Source: Candidatus Eiseniibacteriota bacterium (GTDB lineage Bacteria; Eisenbacteria; RBG-16-71-46). From it: a stretch of 32,619 nt of DNA. The stretch is taken from the NCBI GenBank assembly GCA_031364845.1, contig JANLWX010000011.1, positions 1 through 32,619 on the forward strand, read 5' to 3'. The notes under the pieces were generated by a model. The model did not search any database and had not been told where the DNA came from. It saw only the letters and a list, made by a program, of their open reading frames with translations. Of the stretch, positions 3,371 through 29,406 are shown piece after piece. The position numbers and the translations under genes were made by a program. Each line of letters starts with the position of its first letter. Within the stretch, counting starts at the first letter, position 1.

Positions 3371-5092
3371 GTGTCGGCTCGTCGCGGCGTCTTGTTGTTC
3401 GTGCTGCTGTTGAGCGTTATCGGGACTGCTGTCCTGTTTGCGGCCTTGCGCCTGCGCGGGCCTTCGGGGGGCGCTTCGGCGGGGACGATGATCGTCTTCG
3501 ATCTGCCGATGGACCTGCCGGAGGGTGAGGCGCCGTCGCGGCCGCTGGCGCTGGGATTCCACCGCAGTCGCTACGTCATGCATGAAGTGCTCGAAGGACT
3601 TCGCCGCGCGGCCTCGGACGACGACGTGCGCGGCCTCGTGCTTCACATCGAGGATCTCGACTGGGGCTGGGCGAAGGCCTATGAAGTTCGCGACGCGCTT
3701 CAGGAGTTCCGCAGCTCGGGCAAGCCCGTTTACGCTTCGTTCGAATCGGGCGGCGAGCTCGAATACCTGATCGCCTCGGCTGCGGACATGATCGTGATGC
3801 CGCCCGCCGGCGTGCTGCAACTGGACGGTCTCAGCGCCTCGTCGATGTTCCTGCGCGGCGCGCTCGACAAGCTGGATGTGAGGCCCAACTTCGTCCAGTC
3901 CGGACCGTACAAGTCGGCGGTCGAACAGTACACGCGAACCGGCATGTCCCCCGCGGCTCGCGAAGCGGTCGATGCGATGCTCGACGTCGCCTACGGCATG
4001 CTCGTCGACTCGCTGGCGTCCGCGCGCGGCTATTCTTCCGCGGACGTAATGCGAATTCTCGATGCGGGACCCTATGTCGCCGAAGACGCGCGCTCGGCGG
4101 GGCTCGTCGATTCGCTCATCTACGACGCGGAAGTGGATTCGTTCGCGCTCGCCGAATTCCCCGACAACGTCGCGACCGCCGATTTCGCGGACTACATCAG
4201 CCATCACGGTACCCCGCGCACGGGACAGCGCATCGCGCTCATCACGGCTTCGGGCACGATCCTGCCCGGCAAGAGCCGCAGCGTGCCCGGCGAGGAGAAC
4301 ATCATGGGGTCGGAGACCATGATCGATGCCCTGCGTGAGGCCCGCACCCGGGCTTCGATCAAGGCGGTCGTGCTGCGCATCGACAGCCCCGGCGGATCGG
4401 TGCAGGCGTCGGACGACATCTGGCGCGAAGTGAAGCGGCTGGCCGACGAGAAGCCGGTGATCGTGAGCATGTCGGATCTCGCGGCATCGGGTGGCTACTA
4501 CATCGCGGCCCCCGCGCATCGCATCGTCGCCCAGCCGTCGACACTGACCGGCTCGATCGGTGTGTTCGGCGGCAAGCTCAACATCGGCGGACTGTTCAAC
4601 AAGGCGGGTGTGAATATCGAGACCGTGACCCGCGGCGCACACGCGGGGATGATGTCACCGTACCGCGACTTCACCGCCGAGGAACTGCAGCGCTATCAAC
4701 AACAGGTCGACGCGTGGTACCGGCTGTTCGTGGGACGCGTCGTCGAGGGGCGCGGGATGTCGTTCGCCGAAGTGGACTCGGTCGGCCAGGGCCGTGTGTG
4801 GACCGGGCTCGACGCGTGGGAGCGGGGGCTGGTGGATTCGCTGGGCGGACTCGAAACCGCCCTCGCGATCGCGCGCGAGTCCGCAGGTCTCGAACCCGGA
4901 GGTCCGATCGAAGTGCTACCGCGGGTTCAGCGCCACTGGTACGAGGATGCGTTCGAGGCGATGCTCGATCAGGAGCAGGCGGTGTCGATTCCGGAAATGA
5001 TGTCGCCGATCGTGAGCGCATGGTTCACGGCCGCGCGGCTGCAATCGGGACTCGTGCTCGCCCTGATGCCGTTCAGTGTGGAGATCCGCTGA
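3371..5092 (+). CDS. sppA: Signal peptide peptidase SppA (protease IV, long two-domain form)
   Basis: N-terminal TM; motifs GPYKSAVE, VVLRIDSPGGS, SMSDLAASGGYYIA, TLTGSIGV, GQGRVWTG. Confidence 0.95.
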   Translation: MSARRGVLLFVLLLSVIGTAVLFAALRLRGPSGGASAGTMIVFDLPMDLPEGEAPSRPLALGFHRSRYVMHEVLEGLRRAASDDDVRGLVLHIEDLDWGWAKAYEVRDALQEFRSSGKPVYASFESGGELEYLIASAADMIVMPPAGVLQLDGLSASSMFLRGALDKLDVRPNFVQSGPYKSAVEQYTRTGMSPAAREAVDAMLDVAYGMLVDSLASARGYSSADVMRILDAGPYVAEDARSAGLVDSLIYDAEVDSFALAEFPDNVATADFADYISHHGTPRTGQRIALITASGTILPGKSRSVPGEENIMGSETMIDALREARTRASIKAVVLRIDSPGGSVQASDDIWREVKRLADEKPVIVSMSDLAASGGYYIAAPAHRIVAQPSTLTGSIGVFGGKLNIGGLFNKAGVNIETVTRGAHAGMMSPYRDFTAEELQRYQQQVDAWYRLFVGRVVEGRGMSFAEVDSVGQGRVWTGLDAWERGLVDSLGGLETALAIARESAGLEPGGPIEVLPRVQRHWYEDAFEAMLDQEQAVSIPEMMSPIVSAWFTAARLQSGLVLALMPFSVEIR

Positions 5093-5798: not shown

Positions 5799-7898
5799 TT
5801 GAAGGATTACACCACCGCTCAGATTCGCAACGTCGCACTGGTCGCCCATCACGGAGTCGGCAAGACCACCTTTGCCGAGGCCATGTTGTACCTCGCCAAG
5901 TCCACGAACCGCCTCGGCCGCATCGCCGATGGCACCACGGTTCTGGATCACGCCCCCGACGAAATCCACCGGCAGATCACGATCAACATCGGTCTGGCCC
6001 AGTTCGAATGGGCGGGACACAAGATCAATCTGCTCGACACTCCGGGATACGCGGACTTCGTCGGCGACGTCCACAGCGCGCTGCGCGTCGCGGACTGCGC
6101 GATTCTATTGCTGCGAGCCAATGCGGGCGCGGAAGTCGGCACCGAAGTCGTGTGGGAGATCGTGAAGCAGGACAAGACGCCGACGCTGATGGTCGTCAAC
6201 ATGATGGACAAGGAGCATGCGGACTTCATGGGGGCGATCCGCTCGGCGCACGACCGTCTCGGCATCAATGCGGTCCCGACCCAGCTGCCGATCGGCCAGG
6301 CCGAAACGTTCCACGGCATCGTCGATCTGATCGAGAACAAAGCCTACACGTTCTCGGGCAAGGGAATGGAAGAGAAGAGCACCGAGTCGCCGATTCCCAC
6401 GGAACTCGTGGCCGAAGCCGCCGCGGCGCGCGCGCTGCTGCTCGAAGAGGCGGCGACCGGCGACGAGCACCTGATGGAGAAATTCCTCACGACCGGTGAT
6501 CTGACCGTCGAGGAAATCCGGCGCGGACTGTGCGAGCGTGTCGTTCAGGGCGATCTCGTGCCCGCGTTCTGCTGCTCCGCGTTCAACAACCACGGCGTGA
6601 AGGAAGTGCTCGACGAGGTCGTCGACGTGCTGCCGTCACCGCTCGACGTGAAGCCGCAGGTCGGGGTCATCGAAGGCGCTGCCTCGGCCGAGTGCAAGCC
6701 GGACGCGGCCGAGCCCGCCGCCGCACTCGTGTTCAAGACGCTCTCGGAACAGCACCTCGGCGATCTTTCGCTGCTGCGGCTCTACAGCGGACACGCGGAA
6801 CCGGGCAAGGAACTCGTGAACACCGCGCGCCATCGGCCCGAGAAGCTCGGCGCGCTCTACAACCTTGTGGGCAAGGAACGCCACGAGTGCAAGCAAGTGG
6901 TCGCCGGAGACATCTTCGCGGCCGTGAAGCTGAAGGAGACGCACACCGGCGACACGCTCGCCGACAAGTCGCGGCCGGTGAAGCTCGATTTGCCGATCTT
7001 CCCGGACCCTGTGACCGCCGAGTGCATTCGCGCGAAGAACAAGGGCGACGAGGAGAAGATGGTCCAGGGCCTCGCGCGGTTGCACGAAGAAGACCCGACG
7101 TTCGGGCGGCACTACGAGGCCAGCACCAAGGAATCGCTGGTGCACGGGATGGGCGATCTTCAACTCGAGATCATGGTCGATCGCCTGAAGAAGCGCTTCG
7201 GAGTCGAAGTCGTGCTGTCGAAGCCGCACGTCGCCTATCGCGAGACGATCAAGGGCAAGGCGCAGGGCGAGTACCGCCACAAGAAGCAGACCGGCGGGCG
7301 CGGCCAGTTCGGCGAAGTGCATCTGCGGCTAGAACCGCAGGCGCGCAGCGCAGGCTTCAAGTTCGTCGACGAGGTCAAAGGTGGCGTGGTCCCGAACCAG
7401 TTCATTCCCGCCGTCGAAAAGGGCGTCATCGCGGCGATGGAGCGCGGACCGCTCGCGGGCTATCCGGTGGTCGACGTCCTGACCGCGCTGTTCTTCGGCA
7501 AGTACCACGACGTCGACTCGTCCGAAATGGCGTTCAAGATCGCGGGTGAGAGTTGCTTCCATCAGGTCATGCTCGATGCGCGGCCGGTGCTGCTCGAACC
7601 CATCGAAGAGATCCAGGTGCGCGTTCCCGAGGAGTTTCTCGGCGACGTGATGGGTGACCTGTCGTCGCGGCGGGGCAAGATCCTCGGGACCGAGGCCGAC
7701 GGGCATCACCAGATCATCCGCGCGCACGTTCCGCAGGCCGAGACCTACAAGTACGCGACGCATCTACGTTCGCTCACTCAGGGGCGCGGGATGCATGGAG
7801 CGAAGTTCGCCCACTACGAAGAGGTTCCGCGCGAACTCTCCGACAAGGTGATCGCGGCCGCGCGGGCCGAGAAGGAGGCCGGGGCGCACGCGAGTTGA
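5799..7898 (+). CDS. Elongation factor G paralogue (EF-G2 / EF-G-like)
   Basis: Full five-domain EF-G length (699 aa); KKQTGGRGQFG, YHDVDSSEMAF, LRSLTQGRG; divergent G motifs AHHGVGKTT, RQITI, DTPGY, NMMD; outside the str operon; TTG start with SD GGAGGT. Confidence 0.93.
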   Translation: MKDYTTAQIRNVALVAHHGVGKTTFAEAMLYLAKSTNRLGRIADGTTVLDHAPDEIHRQITINIGLAQFEWAGHKINLLDTPGYADFVGDVHSALRVADCAILLLRANAGAEVGTEVVWEIVKQDKTPTLMVVNMMDKEHADFMGAIRSAHDRLGINAVPTQLPIGQAETFHGIVDLIENKAYTFSGKGMEEKSTESPIPTELVAEAAAARALLLEEAATGDEHLMEKFLTTGDLTVEEIRRGLCERVVQGDLVPAFCCSAFNNHGVKEVLDEVVDVLPSPLDVKPQVGVIEGAASAECKPDAAEPAAALVFKTLSEQHLGDLSLLRLYSGHAEPGKELVNTARHRPEKLGALYNLVGKERHECKQVVAGDIFAAVKLKETHTGDTLADKSRPVKLDLPIFPDPVTAECIRAKNKGDEEKMVQGLARLHEEDPTFGRHYEASTKESLVHGMGDLQLEIMVDRLKKRFGVEVVLSKPHVAYRETIKGKAQGEYRHKKQTGGRGQFGEVHLRLEPQARSAGFKFVDEVKGGVVPNQFIPAVEKGVIAAMERGPLAGYPVVDVLTALFFGKYHDVDSSEMAFKIAGESCFHQVMLDARPVLLEPIEEIQVRVPEEFLGDVMGDLSSRRGKILGTEADGHHQIIRAHVPQAETYKYATHLRSLTQGRGMHGAKFAHYEEVPRELSDKVIAAARAEKEAGAHAS

Positions 7899-15569: not shown

Positions 15570-17120
15570 TCACAGCGGCGGGTTGCCGTGCTTCTTGAAG
15601 GGCAGCGTCTGGCGCTTGTTCCGCAGCATCTCGAGTGCGGCGATCAGCTTCGGTCGCGTGTCGGCGGGCTCGATCACGTCGTCGAGATACCCGAGCTCGG
15701 CGGCCACCCACGGGCTCGCGAACTTGTCGTTGTACTCGGCGATCAGGCGCTTGCGCTCCGCCACCGGGTCCTTCGCCTTCGCCAGCTCCTCGCGGTAGAG
15801 GATGTTCACCGCGCCGTCGGCGCCCATCACGGCCATCTCGGCGCTCGGCCATGCGACGTTGTAGTCGCCGCGGATGTGCTTGCTCGACATGACGTCGTAC
15901 GCGCCGCCGTACGCCTTGCGCACGACGACCGTGAGCTTCGGAACCGTCGCTTCGCAGTAGGCATACAGCAGCTTCGCGCCGTGACGGATGATGCCGCCCC
16001 ACTCCTGGCGCGTGCCGGGCAGGAAGCCGGGCACGTCCTCGAACGTGATGAGGGGAACGTTGAAGGCGTCGCAGAACCGGACGAATCGCGCGGCCTTCAC
16101 CGATGAGTCGATGTCGAGCACGCCGGCGAGCACCTTGGGCTGATTGCCGACGATGCCGACCGGACGGCCGTTCATGCGCGCGAAACCGACGATGATGTTG
16201 CCCGCGAAGTGCTCGTGGACTTCGAAGAAGTCGCCGTCGTCGACAACGCGGCGCACGAGGTCCTTCATGTCGTACGAGCGGTCGGACGACTCGGGCACGA
16301 TCGTGGCGAGTTCCGCATCGCGCCGCTCGGGGGGATCGGTGCACGCGCGCCGCGGCGGCTCTTCCATGCAATTCTGCGGCATGAACGACAGCAGGCGTCG
16401 CACAGTGCGGATTGCGTCGGCGTCGTCGCGCGCGGCGAAATGGGCGACGCCGCTCTTCGAGTTGTGCGTCATCGCACCGCCGAGTTCCTCCATCGAAACG
16501 TCCTCGGCCGTCACCGCCTTGATCACCTCGGGTCCGGTCACGAACATGTGGCTCGTGCCTTCGACCATGATCGTGAAGTCGGTGATCGCGGGCGAGTAGA
16601 CGGCACCTCCCGCGCACGGGCCCATGATCGCCGAGATCTGCGGCACGACGCCGGAAGACAGCGTGTTGCGCAGGAAGATGTCGGCGTAGGCGCCGAGTGA
16701 GACGACGCCTTCCTGGATGCGTGCGCCGCCCGAGTCGTTGAGGCCGATGACCGGCGCACCGTTGTCCATCGCGAGGTCCATGATCGTGCAGATCTTCTTC
16801 GCGTTCGCCTCGCTCATGGTGCCGCCGAACACGGTGAAATCCTGAGCGAAGCAGTAGATCACGCGTCCGTCGACGGTGCCCCAGCCGGCGACCACGCCAT
16901 CGCCGGTGATGCGCTTCTTCTCCATGCCGAAATCAACCGAGCGATGGGTGACGAACGCGCCGACCTCGGAGAACGAGCCCGGATCGAGCAACAGATCGAG
17001 GCGTTCGCGCGCGGTGAGGCAGCCTTTCGCGTGAAGCTTGGCGGTGCGTTCCGGTCCGCCGCCGGCCAGCGACTCTTCACGGCGGCGGGCGAGCTCTGAG
17101 AGACGCTGCTCACGGTTCAC
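15570..17120 (-). CDS. pccB: Acyl-CoA (propionyl/methylmalonyl-CoA) carboxylase carboxyltransferase subunit
   Basis: Start re-called at GTG 17120 (SD GGAGG); [51 protein letters not shown]. Confidence 0.93.
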
Positions 17121-17372
17121 GGGGCGAGGCCTCCACGGGGCGAAGCGGATGATGCGGACCGCCGCATGGAACCGGATTCGCCGCCAAGGGTCAAGAACGC
17201 AGCCCCGCGCCCGCGGGCATCGTCCACGGCGCGTTGGGGCGCATTTCCTCCGCTCCCGATCGAAACCACGGCGATGGGTGAGCAGCGTTGCCGGGCTTCC
17301 GCTATTCTTCCCGCGCCGCCCAGGGTCCGGGAGACGCTCCCGATGCCGGAGCCCGCCATTACCGGAGGAAAC

Positions 17373-18776
17373 ATGGAAGCACATCGCACACAGACACTCC
17401 GTCACGTTGCGGCGTGGGGGACGGGGCTCGCGGCGTTGCTCGCGTTCGGACCCCACGGCGCGGAGGCCGAAGCCTTGAAGGTTCCCTACCAGACGTTCAC
17501 GCTCGACAACGGACTCAAGGTGATCCTCCATGAAGACCACTCGGTTCCGGTCGTCACGGTCAACACCTGGTACCACGTCGGCTCGGGTGACGAGAAGCCG
17601 GGCCGCACCGGGTTCGCGCATCTGTTCGAGCACATCATGTTCATGGGTTCGCAGCACGTGCCGACCGGTGACTTCGACCGGCTGCTCGAAGCGGCGGGCG
17701 CCACCAACAACGGATCGACCACCGAAGACCGCACAAACTACTACGAAGACGGTCCCGCCAACGCGCTGCCGCTCATGCTGTGGCTGGATTCTGACCGCAT
17801 GGGCTATCTGCTTCCCGAGATCACGCCGGACAAGGTCGATCTCCAGCGCGGTGTCGTCCAGAACGAGCGCCGCCAGTCGTACGAGAACCAGCCGTACGGT
17901 CTTGCGGAGGAGAACATCCTGAGCCGGCTCTATCCGGCCGAGCATCCGTATCACTGGCCGGTGATCGGATCGATGAACGATCTGTCGGCGGCGACGATCG
18001 ACGACGTGAAGGAGTTCTTCAAGAAGTACTACGCGCCGAACAACGCCACCATGTGCATCGCGGGCGACATCAAGCCGGCCGAGATCCGCAAAGCGGTCGA
18101 GCAGTACTTCGCCGATGTTCCGCGCGGCCAGGACATCGCGCGTCCGACCGCACCGGCATTCACGCTGCCGGCCGACATCTTCCACACGCTCGAGGATCGT
18201 GTGCAGGTTCCGCGCGTCTACAACGCGTGGCATTCGCAGAAGTCGTGGGGCACCGATGACGCGGCTCTTCAGGTGATGGCAGACGTGCTCGCGGGCGGCA
18301 AGTCGTCGCGTCTCTACAAGCGGCTCGTCTACGAGATGCAGATCGCAAACCAGGTCGCGGCCTATCAGGACGCCGGACGGCTCGACGGCAAGTTCGTGAT
18401 CTTCTCGACCGCGCGTCCGGGCCATACGCTCGACGAAGTGCAGCGCGTGATCGACGAGGAAGTGAAGAAGCTCGCCGAATCCGGCCCGACCGCCCGCGAG
18501 TTGGACCGCGTGCGGAATTCCACCGAGGCCCAGTTCATCGGCGCGATGGAGCAGGTCGGCGGATTCTCGGGCAAAGGCAATCAGTTGAACTACTACAATT
18601 ACTTTGCTGGCGAGCCGGATTCGTTCGAGGCGGATCTCAACCGTTATCGCAACGTGACCGCCGCCGACGTTCAGCGCGTGACGCAGAAATATCTCGCCCA
18701 GCCCAAGCGCATCGTGCTGAGCGTCGTCCCGCAGGGCCAGACCAAACTCGCCGCCACGCAGGGAGTGCAGCCATGA
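17373..18776 (+). CDS. M16B family zinc peptidase, catalytic subunit (exported)
   Basis: Start at ATG 17373 (SD GGAGG); signal peptide; [11 protein letters not shown] inverted zincin motif; VQNERRQ. Confidence 0.93.
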
Positions 18777-21851: not shown

Positions 21852-22577
21852 CTAACGCGTCACCAAGGACGCGAGCGCGGCACGCGCTTCCGGGAGGACG
21901 GCGTTCACCCACTCGGAGTACATCGCGGCCGAGGGATGCAGGCCGTCGGGCGCCACCAGCGTTGCCTCGGTGGAAGCACGCCGCGAGATGGCCGTGATGT
22001 CCACGTAACGAACGCCTGCCTCAGCCGCCTCTTCCCGATTCACGGTATTGAACGCGTCGATCGCCCTCGCGATCGCGGCGCGATCACGGGACGCGGCAAA
22101 CGGAGTGACGCCCCAATCGGGTATCGAAACCACGACCACGCGCGCTGGACGATCGCCGGCAAAGTCGATTGCGCGGTGCAGCAGGCTGCGGAATGCGCCG
22201 CGATAGGTTTCGGCCTCGCCGCCGCGGTACTGATCGTTGACGCCCACCAGCAGGGAGACGAGTTCGTAGCTGCCCTGGGCCTTCGCGGAATCGATCCCCG
22301 CGTCGAGTTCCGCCGTCGTCCAGCCGGTGCGCGCAATGATCACGGGCTCGGAGACAGACACCCCTTCCGCGCGCAAACGCGCCGCGAGCTGGACCGGCCA
22401 GCGCGATTCGGGAGCGACGGATTCACCGATCGTGTAGGAATCGCCGAGCGCTAGGAAGCGCGGTGTCGAGGTCGACGCGACGTTCGAGGGAACGCCGTTG
22501 TCGAGGCGTTCGATGGAACATCCGGCCGTCGCCAGCGCGATCAGAGCCGCCACGAACAAACGGCCGATCCCGGGCAT
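21852..22577 (-). CDS. SGNH/GDSL hydrolase lipoprotein
   Basis: Start re-called at ATG 22577; lipobox LATAG|C; LALGDSYT, ARTGWTT, GVNDQY, DGLHPS. Confidence 0.9.
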   Translation of the reverse strand: MPGIGRLFVAALIALATAGCSIERLDNGVPSNVASTSTPRFLALGDSYTIGESVAPESRWPVQLAARLRAEGVSVSEPVIIARTGWTTAELDAGIDSAKAQGSYELVSLLVGVNDQYRGGEAETYRGAFRSLLHRAIDFAGDRPARVVVVSIPDWGVTPFAASRDRAAIARAIDAFNTVNREEAAEAGVRYVDITAISRRASTEATLVAPDGLHPSAAMYSEWVNAVLPEARAALASLVTR

Positions 22578-22722
22578 GCTCAATTGCGACGGCTTTGCGG
22601 CAGCGCGCGCTCCGGCCCGAGGGGCGAGCGCGACTGCAGGGCCGCTCGCGGGCGTGGTAGTGTCCCGTTTCCAGATTCGCATGGCCCGAGCATACGAGCA
22701 GTCCTCCATCGAAAGCCACCGC

Positions 22723-23184
22723 ATGACCGACGAAACCATCAGCGCCCGCATTCAGACCGAAATGGTCGCCGCCATGAAGTCCAAGAACGTGGATACCTTG
22801 AGCACGCTGCGCATGCTCAAGACCGCCCTCATGGAGGCCAAGACCAAGAAGCCGAAGGATGCCGTGCTCTCGGCGGACGAAGAGATCGAAGTTCTCCAGC
22901 GCTACGTGAAGAAGCGGCGCGAGACCATCACCGAGTTCCGCAAGCACGGGCGCGAGGACGTGGTCGAGAAGGAAGAAGCCGAGATCGCGGTCACGATGCG
23001 CTTTCTCCCGCAGCCGGTGTCCGACGAAGAGCTGCGCGAGATCGTGCGCGCCGCGGTGGCCTCGACCGGGGCGACCACCGGGAAGGACATGGGCAAGGTG
23101 ATCGCGGCCGTGATGGCGCAGGTCAAGGGGCGCGCCGAGGGTTCGGCGGTCTCCAAGCTGGTGAAGGAGTCGCTTCCCGGCTGA
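22723..23184 (+). CDS. GatB/YqeY domain protein
   Basis: Start re-called at ATG 22723; AMKSK..LSTLRMLK, KKRRE, FLPQ, KDMGKVI, GRAEGS. Confidence 0.93.
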   Translation: MTDETISARIQTEMVAAMKSKNVDTLSTLRMLKTALMEAKTKKPKDAVLSADEEIEVLQRYVKKRRETITEFRKHGREDVVEKEEAEIAVTMRFLPQPVSDEELREIVRAAVASTGATTGKDMGKVIAAVMAQVKGRAEGSAVSKLVKESLPG

Positions 23185-23222
23185 GCGCCCGCGGATGCCT
23201 ACGCGGCTTGAAGGCGAAACGA

Positions 23223-23251
23223 GCGGGGGCCGGCGCGATGTCGGCCCCCGC
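23223..23251. terminator. Hairpin between convergent YqeY and TonB-dependent receptor genes
   Basis: GCGGGGGCCGGC/GTCGGCCCCCGC 12-bp stem; no clear U tract. Confidence 0.5.
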
Positions 23252-23256
23252 GACGC

Positions 23257-25296
23257 TTACCGCCAGGTCAGCTGAGCACCGGCACTCACGCTGCGCGGGA
23301 GACCGGGTTCGAAGAACTCGCCGTTGATGCCGTTGATGAACACCGAAGCGACGTAGTTTTCGTCTGTCAGGTTCGTGCCGGTGACGAACGCGCTCAACGA
23401 GTGCTCGCCGAATGCCTTCTTCCATCGCGCGGTTGCCGACACCAGCGTCACCGCGTCGACCTCGCCTCCGGCCGAGTTCGCGTCGTCGGCGAAGTACTTG
23501 CCGATCGATTCGACACCGACATCGGCGCCGATGCCCCACGGTGACATCCAGCCGGCGTGCGCGCTTGCGATCGTCTTCGGCAGGCCCGCGATCTCTCGAT
23601 TCGCGAAGTCGCCGAGATCACCGGGGTACTCGAGATAGGTGTTGTCGGAGAGCGTGAGCGCCCCGCCGATCGTCACCGCCGGAACCGGCAGCCAGTCGAG
23701 ACCGAGTTCGAAGCCGCGGCGCCGCGACTTGCCCGACGTCAGGAAGTACGCGCCGCCGTTGAACGGCACCAGATCGTTGCGGACATCGATCTGGTAGACC
23801 GCCGCGTCGTAGCGCAACGTGGTTCCGCCCGGCGCCTGAGCCGAGCCGCGCGCACCGAGCTCGTAAGTGGTCGACTCGACCGCTTCGAGGAACGGATTGA
23901 GCGACGTGAGCGTGTCGAACGGCGGCGGCGGATCGATCTCGTTGAACGCCGGCGCCTCGACGCCGCCCCCGAGTGCCGCGAAGATCGTGTGCCGGTCGTT
24001 GTGCCACGACACCGATCCCTTCGGAGTCACCTTGGTGAAGCGCTTGCTGGCGTCCAGCACCGGATTGATGAAGTCCTCCGAGATGTACAGCAGGTTGTCG
24101 TAGCGCAGCGCGACGCGCGCCGACCAGCGGTCGTTCCACGTCAACTCCTCCTCGACGAACGCGCCGGCGCTGTTGGCGCCTTCGCGCTTGTTGGCGAACA
24201 GCACGTCGCTGCGCGTGCCGCCGGCCGCGACGTTGTAGAACAGGATCGCGCCGTCCTGAGTCGCTTCGTCGGCGCCCACACGCGTGCGCATCTCGAGCGT
24301 GGGGGTGGGTTGCGCCACTCCGCTCCACACCGCACTGCCACCGAAGTGAACGCGCGTGAAGTCCCGGAACCGGTTGCGCTCCGAGCGCTGCAGCACCTTG
24401 GGCTCCACGAACGTCGCGAGCGTGAGCGCGCTCGCGTCGCTCCATACGCGATCGAGCGTGAGCCCGAGCCGGCCGACGCGATTCCTGCGCCGTTCGTCGC
24501 GGCTCACGAAGCGCGGATTGGCCTGCTGCGGGGCGGAGTCGAGCTGTGCCGCCGTCAGCGCGCCCGGGAAGCGATTGAGATCGCTGACCGCATCGAGAAG
24601 CACACCGAGTCGCGTGCGAGGCTCGATCGGAACGTTGAGCCGCACGCGCGCCTGAGCCGTGGTGCTGGAGCTGTGATCGCGCCAGCCTTCGAACGTGGTG
24701 TTCGAGATCACGGCGAGCCCGCGCGCCGAGCCGATCGCGAACCCTGTGGCGCCCTGCTCGCGGTGAAATCCGAACTCACCGACGCGCTGGCCGTACGAGA
24801 GGTACGGGCGCTCGAAGTCGAGATTCGTGCGGAGGTTCACGACGCCGCCCGAAGCGTTGCCATAGAGCGATGACACGTTGCTGCGCAGGACCTCGATGCG
24901 ATCGATGCTCGCCAGATCCGCGAGGTCGAGCGACGTGCGACCGTCGGGCTCGGTGATCGGGATCCCGTCGCTCAGCACGCGAATGCCGCGCGTGTTGCCG
25001 GCGTTCGAGCGCTCGCCGTTGCCGCGCGCTCCGTAGCCGCGAATCGTGATGCGCACGTCCTGCGCGCCACTGCGGCTCTGGACGAAAACGCCGGGTACGC
25101 CGCTGAGCGCGTCCTTCAGGCTGATCGAGCGCGTCGACTCGAAGGCCGACCCCGGCACGACGGTGATTGCCGCGGGAGTTCGGGCCAGAGGCTCAGCGAC
25201 CCGGCTGCCGGTGACGACCACCTCCGGCACGGGAACGATGAGGGTGTCGGGTGTCGCGCCCGCCAGAACGGCGAGCGCGGTCAATATTGAAAGCAT
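23257..25296 (-). CDS. TonB-dependent outer-membrane receptor
   Basis: TonB box EVVVTGSR; plug motifs VPGV, IRGYG, DGIP, IEVLR..SSLYG..GGVVNL; C-terminal NLTDENY...PGLPRSVSAGAQLTW. Confidence 0.95.
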   Translation of the reverse strand: MLSILTALAVLAGATPDTLIVPVPEVVVTGSRVAEPLARTPAAITVVPGSAFESTRSISLKDALSGVPGVFVQSRSGAQDVRITIRGYGARGNGERSNAGNTRGIRVLSDGIPITEPDGRTSLDLADLASIDRIEVLRSNVSSLYGNASGGVVNLRTNLDFERPYLSYGQRVGEFGFHREQGATGFAIGSARGLAVISNTTFEGWRDHSSSTTAQARVRLNVPIEPRTRLGVLLDAVSDLNRFPGALTAAQLDSAPQQANPRFVSRDERRRNRVGRLGLTLDRVWSDASALTLATFVEPKVLQRSERNRFRDFTRVHFGGSAVWSGVAQPTPTLEMRTRVGADEATQDGAILFYNVAAGGTRSDVLFANKREGANSAGAFVEEELTWNDRWSARVALRYDNLLYISEDFINPVLDASKRFTKVTPKGSVSWHNDRHTIFAALGGGVEAPAFNEIDPPPPFDTLTSLNPFLEAVESTTYELGARGSAQAPGGTTLRYDAAVYQIDVRNDLVPFNGGAYFLTSGKSRRRGFELGLDWLPVPAVTIGGALTLSDNTYLEYPGDLGDFANREIAGLPKTIASAHAGWMSPWGIGADVGVESIGKYFADDANSAGGEVDAVTLVSATARWKKAFGEHSLSAFVTGTNLTDENYVASVFINGINGEFFEPGLPRSVSAGAQLTWR

Positions 25297-25462
25297 GGAA
25301 CTGCTCCTCCCATGAAGAAGTCACGCCGGCGGAGTTCCGCGCGGAGATGCGCCGGGCTCACGGGCGTGGAAATCACGAGCCGCGGCGAAGTCGCGATCCG
25401 CAATCGGGTCGCATCCGCGTCGGGCTCATGATGTGATGGGATGAAGCAGGAGGATCAGTTCC
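25297..25462 (-). promoter_or_regulatory. Structured 5' leader sequestering the receptor ribosome-binding site (SD/anti-SD inverted repeat)
   Basis: 25297-25310 GGAACTGCTCCTCC and 25449-25462 GGAGGATCAGTTCC are reverse complements at 13 of 14 positions; one arm is the receptor SD, the other spans the upstream stop codon. Confidence 0.7.
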
Positions 25463-27122
25463 TCAGAGGCACGAAACGCAGCGGGATCCGGAGGAGAAGC
25501 GCGCGACGGCGCGACGCGCGCGCGTGTGACGAGTGCAGTCGCGGGCCGGGGGCCACGGGACTCACCATGAGCGGCGCGCGCGGGGGCGACTCGGCGGTTT
25601 CGCCGTCGCGCGCGACCACCCATTCGGCGGCGGGACGGCTCAGTGCCACCGCTGCCGGCGCCGCAGGCTCGGATTCGTCGCCGACCCACGTCCAACCCTC
25701 ACGCAGCGCGAATCGCGCGGGCGGGGCCGCAGGATCGGCGACGATCCGGAAGGCGACCGAAGGCGCGAGCATCACTTCGTCGTGCCGCGATGGATGCTCG
25801 CGCCGGGCGGACTCTTCTCGCCGGCCGCGCCCGGCGGGCTCTTCATGATATCGGCCGCGCGCGGCACCGGCCCCGTCGTCCCGGGTTCCAGCGTTCGGGA
25901 CGGAACGTTCGGTTTCGCGCTCGCGCCGCGCTTCGCGCCCGACTCGCATCGCGATGCGCGCCGTTTCGGTCCCGAGGTTCGGCACACGCCACCGGAAGCG
26001 CCGCGTTCCCGGATCGATCTCCGGGGAAATGCGCAACGTGAAATGCCTGCCGTCGTCGATCGACAGCAACAACTCCATCTCTTCGACATCGGCGGGCGGC
26101 GACTCCCAGCGGATTTCCACCACTTCGCCCGCGCGCAACTCGCGCGGCAACCGCTCGAGCGGTGTGCGCCGGGTGCCCCACGATTCGGAAGTCTCGGCAC
26201 CCGTCGGGCTTCTGGGAGTGGAGTCCGGCGCCGCAGAGTCGGGAGCGGAAGGCTCGATCGGAACCGGATCTTCCGATGGAGTCTCGAGCGCAGGCGTCTG
26301 CGCAGGCTTCGGATCTCCGCCTCCGAAGAACCAGTCGGTGAGCGACTGCTTGGGCGGCTCGGCTCTGGATCCGATCGCCGCGGCGTATTGATCCGGCGTG
26401 AGGAACCCGCGCCGGCGCATGCGCGAGGCGATGAGCCGCACCCGCCGCTCGATGCGCCGGTTCGGCTGGAGAACCGAAAACCGCCGCGGGTTGATGATGA
26501 CCGCGGCGAGCAGCACCGCCTGGCGCTCGTTCAATCCGGCCGCGGAAACGCCGAAGTATCGCCGCGCCGCCGCTTCGGCGCCGAAGATGCCGTCGCCCCA
26601 TTCGATCAGGTTCAGATACAGCTCGAAGATGCGCCGCTTCGGAAGTGCCCGCTCGAGACGGATCGCGAGGAACGCTTCCTCGAACTTGCGGGTCAGCGTG
26701 CGGGCGTCGCCGAGGAACAGATTCTTCGCGAGCTGCTGGGTCACGGTGCTGCCGCCGCGAACCACCTTGCGCTCCTCGAGATTCTTGCGCGCGGACGCCT
26801 GGATCTCGTCCCAGTCGAGCCCCTCGTGGCTGAAGAACTTGTCGTCCTCCGCGATGAGGATCGCCCGGCGCAGCGTCGGCGAGACGCGGGTGTAGGGAAC
26901 CCACCGCTGATCAATTCGCAACGCTTTCCCCGCCTTGCGGGCCTCGCGTTCGCGCTGCTTCATCATGGCGGTGCGCTCGGGGGCGCTACGCGCGAGGGCG
27001 CCGACCGGAAACGTCTGGATGCGGATCACCGCGATCAGCCCGAGCAGCACGACCACGGCGAACGCGCCGAGCACGAATGCCTTGAGAAAGGAAAGCGCGC
27101 CGCGGCGCCGCCGCGGGCTCAT
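25455..27122 (-). CDS. mtgA: Monofunctional peptidoglycan transglycosylase (GT51) fused to a Pro/Ser linker, an Ig-like domain and a long C-terminal tail
   Basis: Start ATG 27122 overlaps the upstream stop (ATGA); TM; EDDKFFSHEG, RGGSTVTQQLAKNLFL, RKFEEA, ELYLN..EWGDGIFG; about 300 extra C-terminal residues. Confidence 0.88.
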   Translation of the reverse strand: MSPRRRRGALSFLKAFVLGAFAVVVLLGLIAVIRIQTFPVGALARSAPERTAMMKQREREARKAGKALRIDQRWVPYTRVSPTLRRAILIAEDDKFFSHEGLDWDEIQASARKNLEERKVVRGGSTVTQQLAKNLFLGDARTLTRKFEEAFLAIRLERALPKRRIFELYLNLIEWGDGIFGAEAAARRYFGVSAAGLNERQAVLLAAVIINPRRFSVLQPNRRIERRVRLIASRMRRRGFLTPDQYAAAIGSRAEPPKQSLTDWFFGGGDPKPAQTPALETPSEDPVPIEPSAPDSAAPDSTPRSPTGAETSESWGTRRTPLERLPRELRAGEVVEIRWESPPADVEEMELLLSIDDGRHFTLRISPEIDPGTRRFRWRVPNLGTETARIAMRVGREARRERETERSVPNAGTRDDGAGAARGRYHEEPAGRGRREESARREHPSRHDEVMLAPSVAFRIVADPAAPPARFALREGWTWVGDESEPAAPAAVALSRPAAEWVVARDGETAESPPRAPLMVSPVAPGPRLHSSHARASRRRALLLRIPLRFVPLRN

Positions 27123-28435
27123 TCTCCGCTGTGCTCGGAAACGACGACGACCGTCATGTCGTCGCTCTGCACGGCACGGCCGCGGAAGTTCACGACATCG
27201 GACATCACCGCAGCGATCGTGGTCGCCGGATCGGGTGAGGAGGTCGCCGCCCACAGCGCCTTGAGCCGGTCCTCGCTGTACTCGTTGTTCCTGAGATCCA
27301 GCGCCTCAGAGATTCCGTCACTGTAGAGCAGCAGCGCGTCGCCGGGCGAGAACGATTCCTCGCCCATCGCGTACTCCGAGTTGTCGAGGATTCCGAGCGG
27401 AAGTCCGCCCTCGCGCAGTTCGATGAGTGTTCCGTCGCGGCGCCGCAGCAGCGGATAGTTGTGTCCGGCGTTCGAGTAGAACAGGCGCCCGCGCTCGAGA
27501 TCCAGCTCTGCGTAGAAGAACGTGATGAACTTGCCACTCGATGCCGCACGCGCGACGCTGACGTTGATCATGCGCATCGCCTCGGTGATCCGGCTGCGCC
27601 CGTCGCAGTACGCCCGCGTCGATGCCTGTACGTTGGACATCAGCAGTGCGGCGGGGATGCCCTTGCCCGACACGTCGGCGATCGCGACACCCAGCCGCGA
27701 GTGGCCGAGCAGGAAGTAGTCGAATGCGTCGCCGCCGACTTCGCGCGCCGGAACAACCTGGCCCATCGCCTCCCACGCGCCCGAGCGCAGCGGGCGCGAA
27801 GGCACGAGTGTCATCTGGATCTCGCGCGCGAGGTTCAGCTCCCGCTGCAGTTTCTCCGCCTCCTCCGTCAGCCGCTGACGTTCGCGCGCTTCGACGCGCA
27901 GCCGCGCCTGTTCGATCACTCCCGCGGAGTTCGAGGCGACGATCGTGAGCAGCTGGATGTCCTCGGGCGCCCACACCCGTCCCGGTGTGGCGTGGGTGAT
28001 CGCGAGCATGCCGGTAAAGCGGTTCTCGACCTTGAGCGGAACCGCGAGCACGGCGCGCAGGCGCGTGTCCACGCCTTTGAGTCCGGGGAAGCGCGGATCG
28101 GACGTGAGGTCGGGCGTGGCGAGCGGCTCGTTCTTCGCCATGAGAAAGCCCATCACGTTCATCGACACGGTTGCCGGCCACGAGCCCGAACCGACTCCCG
28201 GGTCGCGCTTGGCGACCAGCGTCTTCACGGTCGGCTCCGACAATTCCGGTCCGAGCAGCTTGATGCTGCCTTCGTCGGCGGAGAACATCGCGGTGGTCTT
28301 CTGCACCATCCAGTCGAGGATCGGCTGGAGTTCGGTGTGCGAGGCGACGATCATGCTGAGCTCCGTCAGGAACTCCAGCTCCGCCATCAGTCGCTGCGGA
28401 TCGGGCGTCGCGCGGGTTCCAGGGCTCAGGGTCAT
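27119..28435 (-). CDS. GAF + PP2C/SpoIIE (RsbU-like) serine phosphatase
   Basis: N-terminal GAF; AREIQ, VGGDAFD, IADVSGKG, NAGH, YSDGISE, SDDMT. Confidence 0.93.
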   Translation of the reverse strand: MTLSPGTRATPDPQRLMAELEFLTELSMIVASHTELQPILDWMVQKTTAMFSADEGSIKLLGPELSEPTVKTLVAKRDPGVGSGSWPATVSMNVMGFLMAKNEPLATPDLTSDPRFPGLKGVDTRLRAVLAVPLKVENRFTGMLAITHATPGRVWAPEDIQLLTIVASNSAGVIEQARLRVEARERQRLTEEAEKLQRELNLAREIQMTLVPSRPLRSGAWEAMGQVVPAREVGGDAFDYFLLGHSRLGVAIADVSGKGIPAALLMSNVQASTRAYCDGRSRITEAMRMINVSVARAASSGKFITFFYAELDLERGRLFYSNAGHNYPLLRRRDGTLIELREGGLPLGILDNSEYAMGEESFSPGDALLLYSDGISEALDLRNNEYSEDRLKALWAATSSPDPATTIAAVMSDVVNFRGRAVQSDDMTVVVVSEHSGE

Positions 28436-28605
28436 GGGGCGGTTCCTCGTTCGAATCGCGGCAGAGCGGCTTCGGTAGGCGGGCCGAAGTGTAGGGCCGA
28501 CGTTCCCGTGTATACTACCCGGCTCCGCCGCCGAACGGGAACATTCGCGATGGCGGCGACCATCGTAAGTGTCTCGACCGCCCCCTATCTGCGACGGATC
28601 CGCCC

Positions 28606-29406
28606 ATGACGACCCCTGTCCTCAAAGCCTACGAAAACCTGCTGATCGAACGCACCGGTGCCGTCACGGTGCTCAAGGTGCATCGTCCCGACGTGCTGAA
28701 CGCGCTGAATCGCGAGACGCTGGCCGAGATCGACGATGCCGCCCGGGCGTTTATCGACGACGACGAGCAGGGCGCTCTGATCGTGACGGGTGCGGGGGAG
28801 AAGAGTTTCATCTCGGGCGCCGACATCAACGAGCTGGCGGTGCTCGGTCCCGCCGCGGCCGAGGAGATCTCGCGATTCGGCCAGAGTGTGCTCGATGTGC
28901 TTGAGCGCTCGCCCAAGCCCGTGATCGCGGCGGTGAACGGATATGCGTTCGGCGGCGGCTGCGAGCTGGCGCTCGCGTGTCACATGCGGCTCGCGAGCGA
29001 CAATGCGGTGCTCGGGCTGCCCGAGGTGAGCCTCGGAATCATTCCGGGATACGGTGGAACCCAGCGGCTGCCGCGCCTGATCGGCACCGGGCGCGCGCTC
29101 GAGCTGATGTTGTCGGGCGGCCGCGTGAAAGCGGATGAAGCGGCGCGCATCGGGCTCGTGAACCGCGTCGTTCCGAAGGAGCAGCTGCAGGACGAAGCGA
29201 TGAAACTCGCCCAGGCGATTCTCAAGAACGGACCGCTCGCGGTGTCGGCGGTGCTGGAAGCGGTTCAGCGCGGACTTCAGGGTCCGATCGATGCCGGGTT
29301 GCGGCTCGAGAGCGGACTGTTCGGTATCCTCGCCGCGAGCGACGACATGCACGAAGGACTGAACGCGTTCCTGGAGAAGCGGCCGGCGCGATTCCTGCGC
29401 AAGTAG
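28606..29406 (+). CDS. Enoyl-CoA hydratase (crotonase family)
   Basis: LNAL, FISGADI, AVNGYAFGGGCELALAC, GLPEVSLGIIPGYGGTQRL, AFLEKR. Confidence 0.95.
   Translation: MTTPVLKAYENLLIERTGAVTVLKVHRPDVLNALNRETLAEIDDAARAFIDDDEQGALIVTGAGEKSFISGADINELAVLGPAAAEEISRFGQSVLDVLERSPKPVIAAVNGYAFGGGCELALACHMRLASDNAVLGLPEVSLGIIPGYGGTQRLPRLIGTGRALELMLSGGRVKADEAARIGLVNRVVPKEQLQDEAMKLAQAILKNGPLAVSAVLEAVQRGLQGPIDAGLRLESGLFGILAASDDMHEGLNAFLEKRPARFLRK

Follow-up and report, generated by a model that had tools for sequence, protein, structure and literature searches.

The 32,619-nucleotide stretch analysed here (the window), a contig of a Candidatus Eiseniibacteriota bacterium, carries on its minus strand a TonB-dependent receptor gene preceded by an open reading frame (ORF) whose product ends in ...RIPLRFVPLRN, directly before a UGA stop codon. 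The C-terminal part of that ORF is a member of a conserved, unannotated family of exported leader proteins found ahead of TonB-dependent receptors in the Eisenbacteria. The architecture of these leaders, their C-terminal motif, the UGA stop, the fixed length of the tail and a locus-matched complement to the receptor Shine-Dalgarno (SD) sequence near the leader stop were all observed. We consider it probable, though well short of certain, that the family is a new type of export-coupled, stop-codon arrest-peptide switch, in which the P-L-R-x end likely stalls the ribosome at UGA, a helix is predicted to loosen and the receptor would be turned on, with a nutrient as the sensed signal. A preliminary description, made from the letters of the window alone, had proposed an arrest-peptide switch at this locus; its observation is confirmed, and its interpretation is partly supported by what follows.

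The leader family and its C-terminal end

When the last 231 residues of the window ORF served as query, 31 of 61 related genomes contained relatives, and in nearly every case the match covered the immunoglobulin-like (Ig) part alone. Across the phylum, 73 of 206 genomes gave profile matches, some of them weak hits to generic Ig domains. Family members are mostly 195-265 amino acids long and are encoded by small unannotated upstream ORFs; databases contain several hundred relatives, and one protein cluster is named Thermoanaerobaculia. To avoid circularity, the profile used to choose leaders was built on the Ig domain alone; it was run on loci retrieved with full-length queries. The 77 hits consist of five cut by locus ends, 12 complete hits below 40 bits, which lack the C-terminal motif and are mostly generic secreted proteins, and 60 higher-scoring ones, 58 of which have a signal-like hydrophobic region (h-region) of their own. 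Translation starts were assigned by hand at 10 loci, and the 3392 background genes, called in the window genome with a simple caller, are approximate. None of 31 members matched a Pfam family at E 0.05, nor did the leader part of the window ORF, and searches of NCBIfam and of PDB sequences gave no family (one NCBIfam hit, E 0.039, in one of the 31 members was disregarded). A word-indexed search of genome contigs with the window protein and a search of viral contigs for the leader returned no matches.

The ends of these proteins are strongly constrained. All but two of the 60 leaders end in P-x-R-x, the others being one P-x-Q-x and one frameshifted copy with FVPLRN in another frame, while only 29 of the 3392 background genes have such an ending. 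When a profile including the motif was used to search databases, 112 of 120 matches had the motif ending; among 112 single-domain database representatives, 98 have the motif, nine more keep the Arg at -2 and five have neither. The consensus is P-R-[F/S]-x-P-L-R-x, with Arg -2 and Pro -4 fixed and the final position free. Four synonymous codons for Pro, five for Leu and five for Arg are in use within the motif, and therefore it is the peptide that is conserved and not the nucleotide sequence. The stop codon is UGA in 58 of 59 intact leaders, compared with 65% of window-genome genes and 18 of 32 receptor genes at the same loci. A DNA pattern for P-L-R-x-UGA was about as frequent as its reversed control in 13 genomes, and no second leader type was found among 16 hand-picked matches to it. 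One uncalled ORF on the minus strand of G000:C163, with its stop near strand position 4509, ends in ...CVGTCVLRR-UGA 77 nt ahead of a gene for an 887-residue secreted protein; this is probably chance.

The residues that precede the motif are conserved in number rather than in kind. Identity between members is 0.24 in the tail against 0.23 after shuffling, and 0.43 in the Ig domain, yet in 59 leaders the distance between the end of the Ig domain and the stop has an interquartile range of 91-94 residues (full range 78-109). An E-x-x-W-W element was detected in 28 genome leaders, always 71-78 residues ahead of the C terminus; in 98 database proteins this distance is 74-78 residues (5th-95th percentile). 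In one subgroup L-G-L-P occupies a comparable position (median 75). The AlphaFold model of a relative is a confident seven-strand sandwich (predicted local distance difference test, pLDDT, above 90 over the domain) with a disordered tail, and its best structural matches, at Z 8-9, are FnIII and Ig domains; so common a fold implies no function. Four residues, E60, E62, R105 and E112, are present in 100% of 247 leader domains, against 3%, 6%, 30% and 15% of 704 generic repeats. Kre9/KNH-like (PF10342) Ig repeats share the beta-sandwich core, with G44, W51, S66, G70, W90 and P93 common to both, but the generic repeats have no tail, motif or link to a receptor; the matches to them from an atlas search all scored below 0.9 and are weak leads only. 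In very large secreted proteins (P0161-P0179 and similar) this Ig core is repeated up to 34 times, and such proteins are the probable source of the leader's domain.

For the analysis of downstream genes and RNA, four leaders were left out, namely L099 (frameshift), L077 (no downstream gene) and L022 and L085 (contig ends), leaving 56 loci. At 53 of these the downstream ORF falls into one homology group with the TonB-dependent receptor of the window; the other three are a cut ORF, an integrase fragment and no real gene. A conserved end at the stop and a conserved place before such receptors were among the checks suggested in the preliminary description, and both were found. The receptors make up at least five classes at less than 45% identity, including PqqU-like, siderophore-like and ZnuD-like ones, all under the family cut-offs (23 of 55 scanned). 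Spacers between leader and receptor are 53-195 nt, apart from two of 288-289 nt, and in each of four genomes with two tandem receptors each receptor has its own leader. Receptor class does not follow the leader tree, on which it requires 21 changes, where the least possible is five and the shuffled mean is 26; receptor class A alone needs 14 changes, nine of them forced by starred branches. This is as expected of a portable cis module. Only one of the 14 plug-bearing receptor genes of the window genome has such a leader.

At many loci transcription appears to begin close to the leader start. A -10-like box 6-11 nt ahead of an in-frame start is present in 25 of 59 leaders, compared with one of 59 per shifted frame and 280 of the 3392 window-genome genes, and an SD precedes the leader start in three of 51, so that many leaders look leaderless or nearly so at the mRNA level. 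A transcription start inside the spacer, which would exclude the anti-SD arm, was an objection raised in the preliminary description itself; no sign of a promoter was seen there, TAnnnT being present in just two of 56 spacers.

Several individual loci deserve mention. L031 (G032:C10), L077 (G018:C93) and L107 (G124:C242) have the motif and UGA intact with no receptor behind them, but instead an integrase fragment, no gene and no real gene, respectively; L031 keeps the usual pyrimidine arm past the stop, and these orphans are usable as natural controls. The receptor gene of L064 (G004:C75) is broken after 55 codons, and the leader of L099 (G117:C4) has one frameshift in its tail, either of which may be decay or an assembly error. 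In L114, L128, L133-L135, L036 and L110 the cassette is often beside quinone genes of the ubiA/ubiX/ubiD type, and in three loci lexA lies past the receptor; this is likely an insertion site shared within one lineage. Ahead of the leader at L129 (1828-3287) are a phosphate-porin-like gene and a gene of the HTH_17+TOBE (molybdate-regulator-like) type.

Predicted pairing between the leader stop and the receptor ribosome-binding site

Across loci, the predicted partner of the receptor SD is most often at +1 to +14 past the leader stop; the last ten codons form a secondary peak. At least half of the SD is paired within -15 to +20 of the stop in 27 of 56 loci, the window locus included, as compared with 13 of 267 ordinary gene pairs; counting only +1 to +20, the figures are 25 of 52 loci and 20 of 616 shuffled spacers. 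The duplexes are also matched to their loci, averaging -18.9 kcal/mol for arms of the same locus and -15.0 for swapped arms, a gain of 3.9 that was equalled in 0 of 10000 permutations. With one locus per genus (21 genera) the gain is 3.45 kcal/mol, with p<0.001 in all 200 resamples. Because own-locus duplexes beat swapped ones, the SD and anti-SD arms change together, which bears out the expectation of matched arms in the preliminary description. RNAalifold did not recover the long-range helix from four spacers; since the spacers align poorly, the case for covariation rests on the swap test. Of the loci without a receptor, L031 was omitted from the 10000-permutation test, and L031 and L107 from the per-genus resampling, the tree, the sliding-plateau test and the shuffled-spacer (52-locus) test; the two spacers of 288-289 nt were omitted from the sliding-ribosome and shuffled-spacer tests.

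We modelled a ribosome as a footprint slid along the leader mRNA. It has little effect on the predicted helix until the last two or three codons, and the effect then reaches a plateau at or next to the stop.

At the window locus the leader stop UGA occupies 25457-25455 and the receptor AUG is at 25296, with a 158-nt spacer between them. The ribosome-binding arm of the receptor (25297-25313, minus strand) contains the SD GGAGGAG at 25310-25304, and two upstream arms compete for it. Arm A (25449-25462, minus) runs across the final codons and the stop; 13 of its 14 positions form Watson-Crick pairs with 25310-25297 and the remaining one is an A.G mismatch, giving a duplex of -21.2 kcal/mol. Arm B (25436-25449, minus), at +6 to +19 past the stop, is able to pair with 25313-25301. 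Both helices are exactly where the preliminary description had placed them, and both are recovered in the predicted ensemble, in which the arm B helix predominates (pair probability about 0.79) and the arm A helix is the minor state (about 0.21). Two predicted inner hairpins (25432-25372 and 25368-25322, together 25322-25432, minus) would join the anti-SD to the SD. Compared with its shuffles, the 231-nt region is only modestly more stable (z -1.89, 9 of 200), and thus the single locus is weak evidence and the comparative data carry the case. No Rfam family matched the spacer at its gathering score in the window or in 19 loci, and a search at E up to 10 gave only chance hits.

A proposed mechanism and its alternatives

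The mechanism we favour would begin with the nascent P-R-x-x-P-L-R-x peptide arresting its ribosome at termination, at the release factor 2 (RF2) step on UGA. According to the fold model, a ribosome held at the stop would loosen the helix that masks the receptor SD and so turn on translation of the receptor. The ribosome tunnel holds about 30-40 residues and the SecY channel 15-25, so residue -76, and with it the Trp element, should have reached the SecY exit or just passed it; the 76-residue ruler would thereby put the whole Ig domain in the periplasm. A periplasmic event, most likely binding of the receptor's nutrient accompanied by folding or docking, might then tug on the chain and release the arrest. 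When the nutrient is scarce the ribosome would stall and the receptor be made; when it is plentiful the helix would re-form and the receptor be off. A metal ion is our best guess for the nutrient, judging from the invariant Glu/Glu/Arg/Glu patch specific to leaders. In the window genome, the MtgA anchor described below would give the export signal and the mtgA operon the transcript. The fullest version of this proposal is a portable nascent-chain mechanosensor, in which the periplasmic Ig domain binds the nutrient through the Glu/Glu/Arg/Glu patch, force transmitted through the 76-residue ruler frees the RF2/UGA arrest, and one module, often on leaderless mRNA, serves at least five unrelated receptor classes; this we offer tentatively and would not expect to hold in every part.

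A number of observations weigh against the favoured mechanism. The mean modelled opening gain is only about 3 kcal/mol, and the plateau fails to separate a stalled from a normally terminating ribosome, or the last sense codon from the stop. The predicted near-stop helix is absent in 29 of 56 loci and present in only one of seven of the ZnuD-like class. In the swap test a control segment itself showed an own-locus bias of 0.7 kcal/mol (241 of 10000), and of 1.2 in the per-genus version. UGA may have been retained partly through its pairing in the helix, and the genomes carrying the family are kin. At the window locus, the preliminary description held that a ribosome at FVPLRN-stop would cover both arms and switch the receptor on. 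The modelled ribosome does cover arm A wholly and lowers the cost of opening the ribosome-binding site, but only from 16.4 to 12.2 kcal/mol, a value that still exceeds the 9.3 median of ordinary gene pairs; it reaches only the first nucleotides of arm B, whose 3' part, together with a local hairpin, keeps most of the SD core in pairs (unpaired 0.06). The window copy also lacks its own start and signal and has a 48-residue insertion. As for sensing, none of 208 leader proteins contains CxxC, AlphaFold leaves the Trp element undocked (pLDDT about 52), and a run on the Trp subgroup left it unordered too; with no metal-binding motif and no docked Trp element, the sensing step is a guess.

We considered whether the same arrest might act mainly on transcription, with a stalled ribosome barring Rho from the C-rich stretch at the stop, as in TnaC and CruR, and the helix secondary. 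Rho is present in the window genome, the RNA is richer in C than in G over the final 120 nt of the leader and the 30 nt that follow (0.43-0.47 against 0.24-0.34), and Rho control would account for the long-spacer loci (288 and 289 nt) without a helix; CruR acts through Rho (PMC9426467). The C-richness is, however, also expected from Pro, Arg and Ala codons and from any anti-SD, and Rho has no need of an SD pairing matched to each locus; we think it unlikely that transcription is the main output. Alternatively, arrest and helix might both be as proposed while the leader gauges export or periplasmic folding capacity, in the manner of SecM and VemP, instead of a nutrient. The lack of a Cys/His metal motif and the service of one leader type to at least five receptor classes would fit, and the cis elements of VemP reportedly lie about 70 residues ahead of its arrest point. 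Those elements, Arg-85 and a short hydrophobic segment, touch the translocon when VemP is arrested (PMC7793623, PMC11470409). But it makes little sense to switch importers on during export failure, known monitors precede sec or yidC genes, and the invariant charged patch that the Ig domain bears is missing from generic repeats; we think export monitoring quite unlikely.

Two further explanations dispense with regulated arrest. Any ribosome terminating at the UGA might briefly open the helix, the leader being an ordinary periplasmic partner made in step with the receptor. Coupling through RNA unfolding over about 50 nt is known (PMC12548453), and our fold model is blind to the difference between stalling and termination, but such coupling leaves the invariant Arg -2, the fixed tail length and the free swapping of receptor partners unexplained, and we judge it improbable. 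It is more improbable still that P-L-R-x-COOH is a tag on the finished protein, that is, a protease, PDZ or sorting signal in which the ribosome has no part. Short C-terminal motifs often act as tags, as is generally known; a tag, however, needs neither a fixed distance to a folded domain nor a fixed stop codon, only 12 of 208 proteins have a membrane helix in the tail, and no other exported protein checked in the window genome has the PLRx ending.

If the export-coupled arrest switch is real, it would add a new stop-codon arrest motif to the handful of leaders known to control import across the outer membrane, and a new type of sensor in which a folded Ig domain takes the place of CxxC, in a phylum with almost no described regulation. 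Arrest peptides are in wide use as force sensors, and a fixed spacing of 76 residues in otherwise random sequence would be a natural ruler from the ribosome active site to the translocon exit.

The window copy, its neighbours and known systems

The leader ORF of the window (27122-25455, minus, 555 amino acids) is an in-frame fusion. Its first part, MtgA (26151-27122, minus), consists of an N-terminal hydrophobic anchor, a transglycosylase domain (PF00912; 26912-26418, minus), a Pro/Asp/Ser-rich tail and about 20 linker residues. The preliminary description had called the product membrane-anchored, with a tail of about 95 residues after its last folded domain. The 95-residue tail past the Ig-like domain and the final residues hold as described, and an anchor is present, but it is MtgA's, whereas relatives have their own signals. 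Such a fusion occurs at one of 20 mtgA loci, in the window genome only; the other 19 stop after a short tail. One Logan contig at depth 12 crosses the MtgA junction without differences, though the run may be the source sample; no contig from another sample bridges the junction, although both flanks are covered, and no fused leader was found among proteins of 413-2000 amino acids, which is weak evidence.

The leader part begins with the Ig/FnIII-like sandwich (25743-26150, minus), delimited by alignment, with the invariant residues E24, E26, R69 and E125 counted from 26150. In one loop is a 48-residue, in-frame charged insertion (25779-25922, minus), found in the window copy alone (one of 31 alignment rows) and outside the fixed-length tail. 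The E-G-W-T-W element (25686-25700, minus; family form E-x-x-W-W) is 76 residues from the C terminus, and the 76 residues of low complexity that follow (25458-25685, minus), recognized by tail comparison and predicted disorder, are the fixed-length ruler of unconserved sequence. L-R-F-V-P-L-R-N with the UGA (25455-25481, minus) fits the family P-R-[F/S]-x-P-L-R-x-UGA and is the candidate termination-arrest sequence. That motif, ruler, invariant residues and helix have been kept despite the fusion and the insertion suggests that the window copy is still under selection, and we think it doubtful, if possible, that it is impaired.

Upstream is a gene for a GAF and SpoIIE phosphatase protein (27119-28435, minus; PF01590, PF07228). 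Its stop overlaps the mtgA start (ATGA), so it heads the transcription unit in the window genome; spoIIE adjoins mtgA in 16 of 20 mtgA loci, that of the window among them. No sigma-70 promoter was found in 22900-28700, and the MtgA part stands in place of the usual leader promoter and signal peptide. Downstream, the receptor gene (23257-25296, minus; 679 amino acids) has a PqqU-like model as its nearest match, at 238 bits far below the 1200 cut-off, and is followed by a convergent yqeY (22498-23184, plus), identified by family match. In 16 of 19 other mtgA loci yqeY is within about 1.5 kb of mtgA, mostly right behind it; the leader and receptor cassette was therefore likely inserted between the two in the window genome, with loss of its own start. 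In a genome of the same genus, L126 (G001:C1) has its leader, complete with signal peptide, directly after yqeY and a ZnuD-like receptor gene 288 nt further on, and the mtgA/yqeY neighbourhood seems to attract the cassette.

Elsewhere in the window are the 3' end of a 23S rRNA and a 5S rRNA (1-615), an EF-G-like gene (5799-7898) apart from the usual ribosomal protein operon and ahead of yebC, ruvC and ruvB, likely a second EF-G, and a 951-codon frame (15570-18425) whose last half is a carboxyl transferase; its first 460 residues have no family match and its true start is probably later.

The literature searched, whose coverage did not extend to subscription papers and bioRxiv supplements, contained no description of this leader family or of a P-L-R-x arrest motif, in keeping with the earlier remark that the ending is neither RAPP nor RGPP and could be undescribed. 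No instance of VPLRN, FPLRN or VPLRA was found in 12 supplement files of PMC10987492 (one searched in part). PLRN or PLRA is matched 208 times in the 10 supplement files of PMC12992588 that were searched (one in part), and the four matches inspected are internal to RAPP proteins.

The NSP-stop, NAP-stop and DGMK-stop peptides (PMC10987492) have conserved residues directly before the stop and arrest with the stop codon in the A site, which is UGA in PepNL. They use other motifs, with Pro or Lys as the last residue, and precede sec genes or are tiny cytoplasmic peptides; the leader lacks their motifs, and its last residue is free while Arg -2 and Pro -4 are fixed. Judged by the hallmarks of export-coupled arrest peptides given in the same paper (PMC10987492), the leader is a small unannotated upstream ORF with an export signal and a conserved C-terminal sequence more than 30 residues from that signal, but it precedes TonB receptors instead of secA, secDF or yidC. 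Sequestration of the next gene's SD is predicted in about half of the leader loci, far above background, and is only partly opened in the model of the window locus. VemP (PMC7793623, PMC11470409) and SecM likewise have a signal peptide, an arrest site near the C terminus, an upstream cis element and an SD-hiding stem opened by the stalled ribosome, as we propose here; unlike the leader, they arrest in elongation, control sec genes and have no Ig domain.

Other close parallels are leaders of metal and TonB genes. Upstream ORFs ending in RAPP or RGPP before TonB receptors (PMC12992588) have a like build, and RAPP leaders are described there as widespread. CruR (DUF2946), before the TonB transporter gene bfrG of Bordetella pertussis (PMC9426467), resembles the leader in having a leader ORF, a long spacer and a conserved distance from sensor to motif, the CxxC-RAPP spacing of CruR being fixed. 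The leader has no CxxC, no RAPP and no DUF2946 match, its motif abuts the stop, and its SD-hiding helix begins at the stop. CutF, which precedes cutO in Rhodobacter capsulatus (PMC9973294), is also an exported upstream protein with a stalling-like C-terminal motif, an intergenic SD-hiding stem, which CutF opens, and extracytoplasmic sensing during export, although stalling and sensing are inferred for the leader. CruR and CutF are marked by an exported ORF upstream of a TonB receptor or metal gene, and the leaders share this feature, 58 of 60 being signal-like and 53 of 56 standing before TonB receptors. CutF itself carries CxxxC, ends in a proline-rich stretch and governs a copper oxidase (PMC9973294), whereas the leader combines a folded Ig domain, no Cys motif and a P-L-R-x-UGA ending with TonB receptors.

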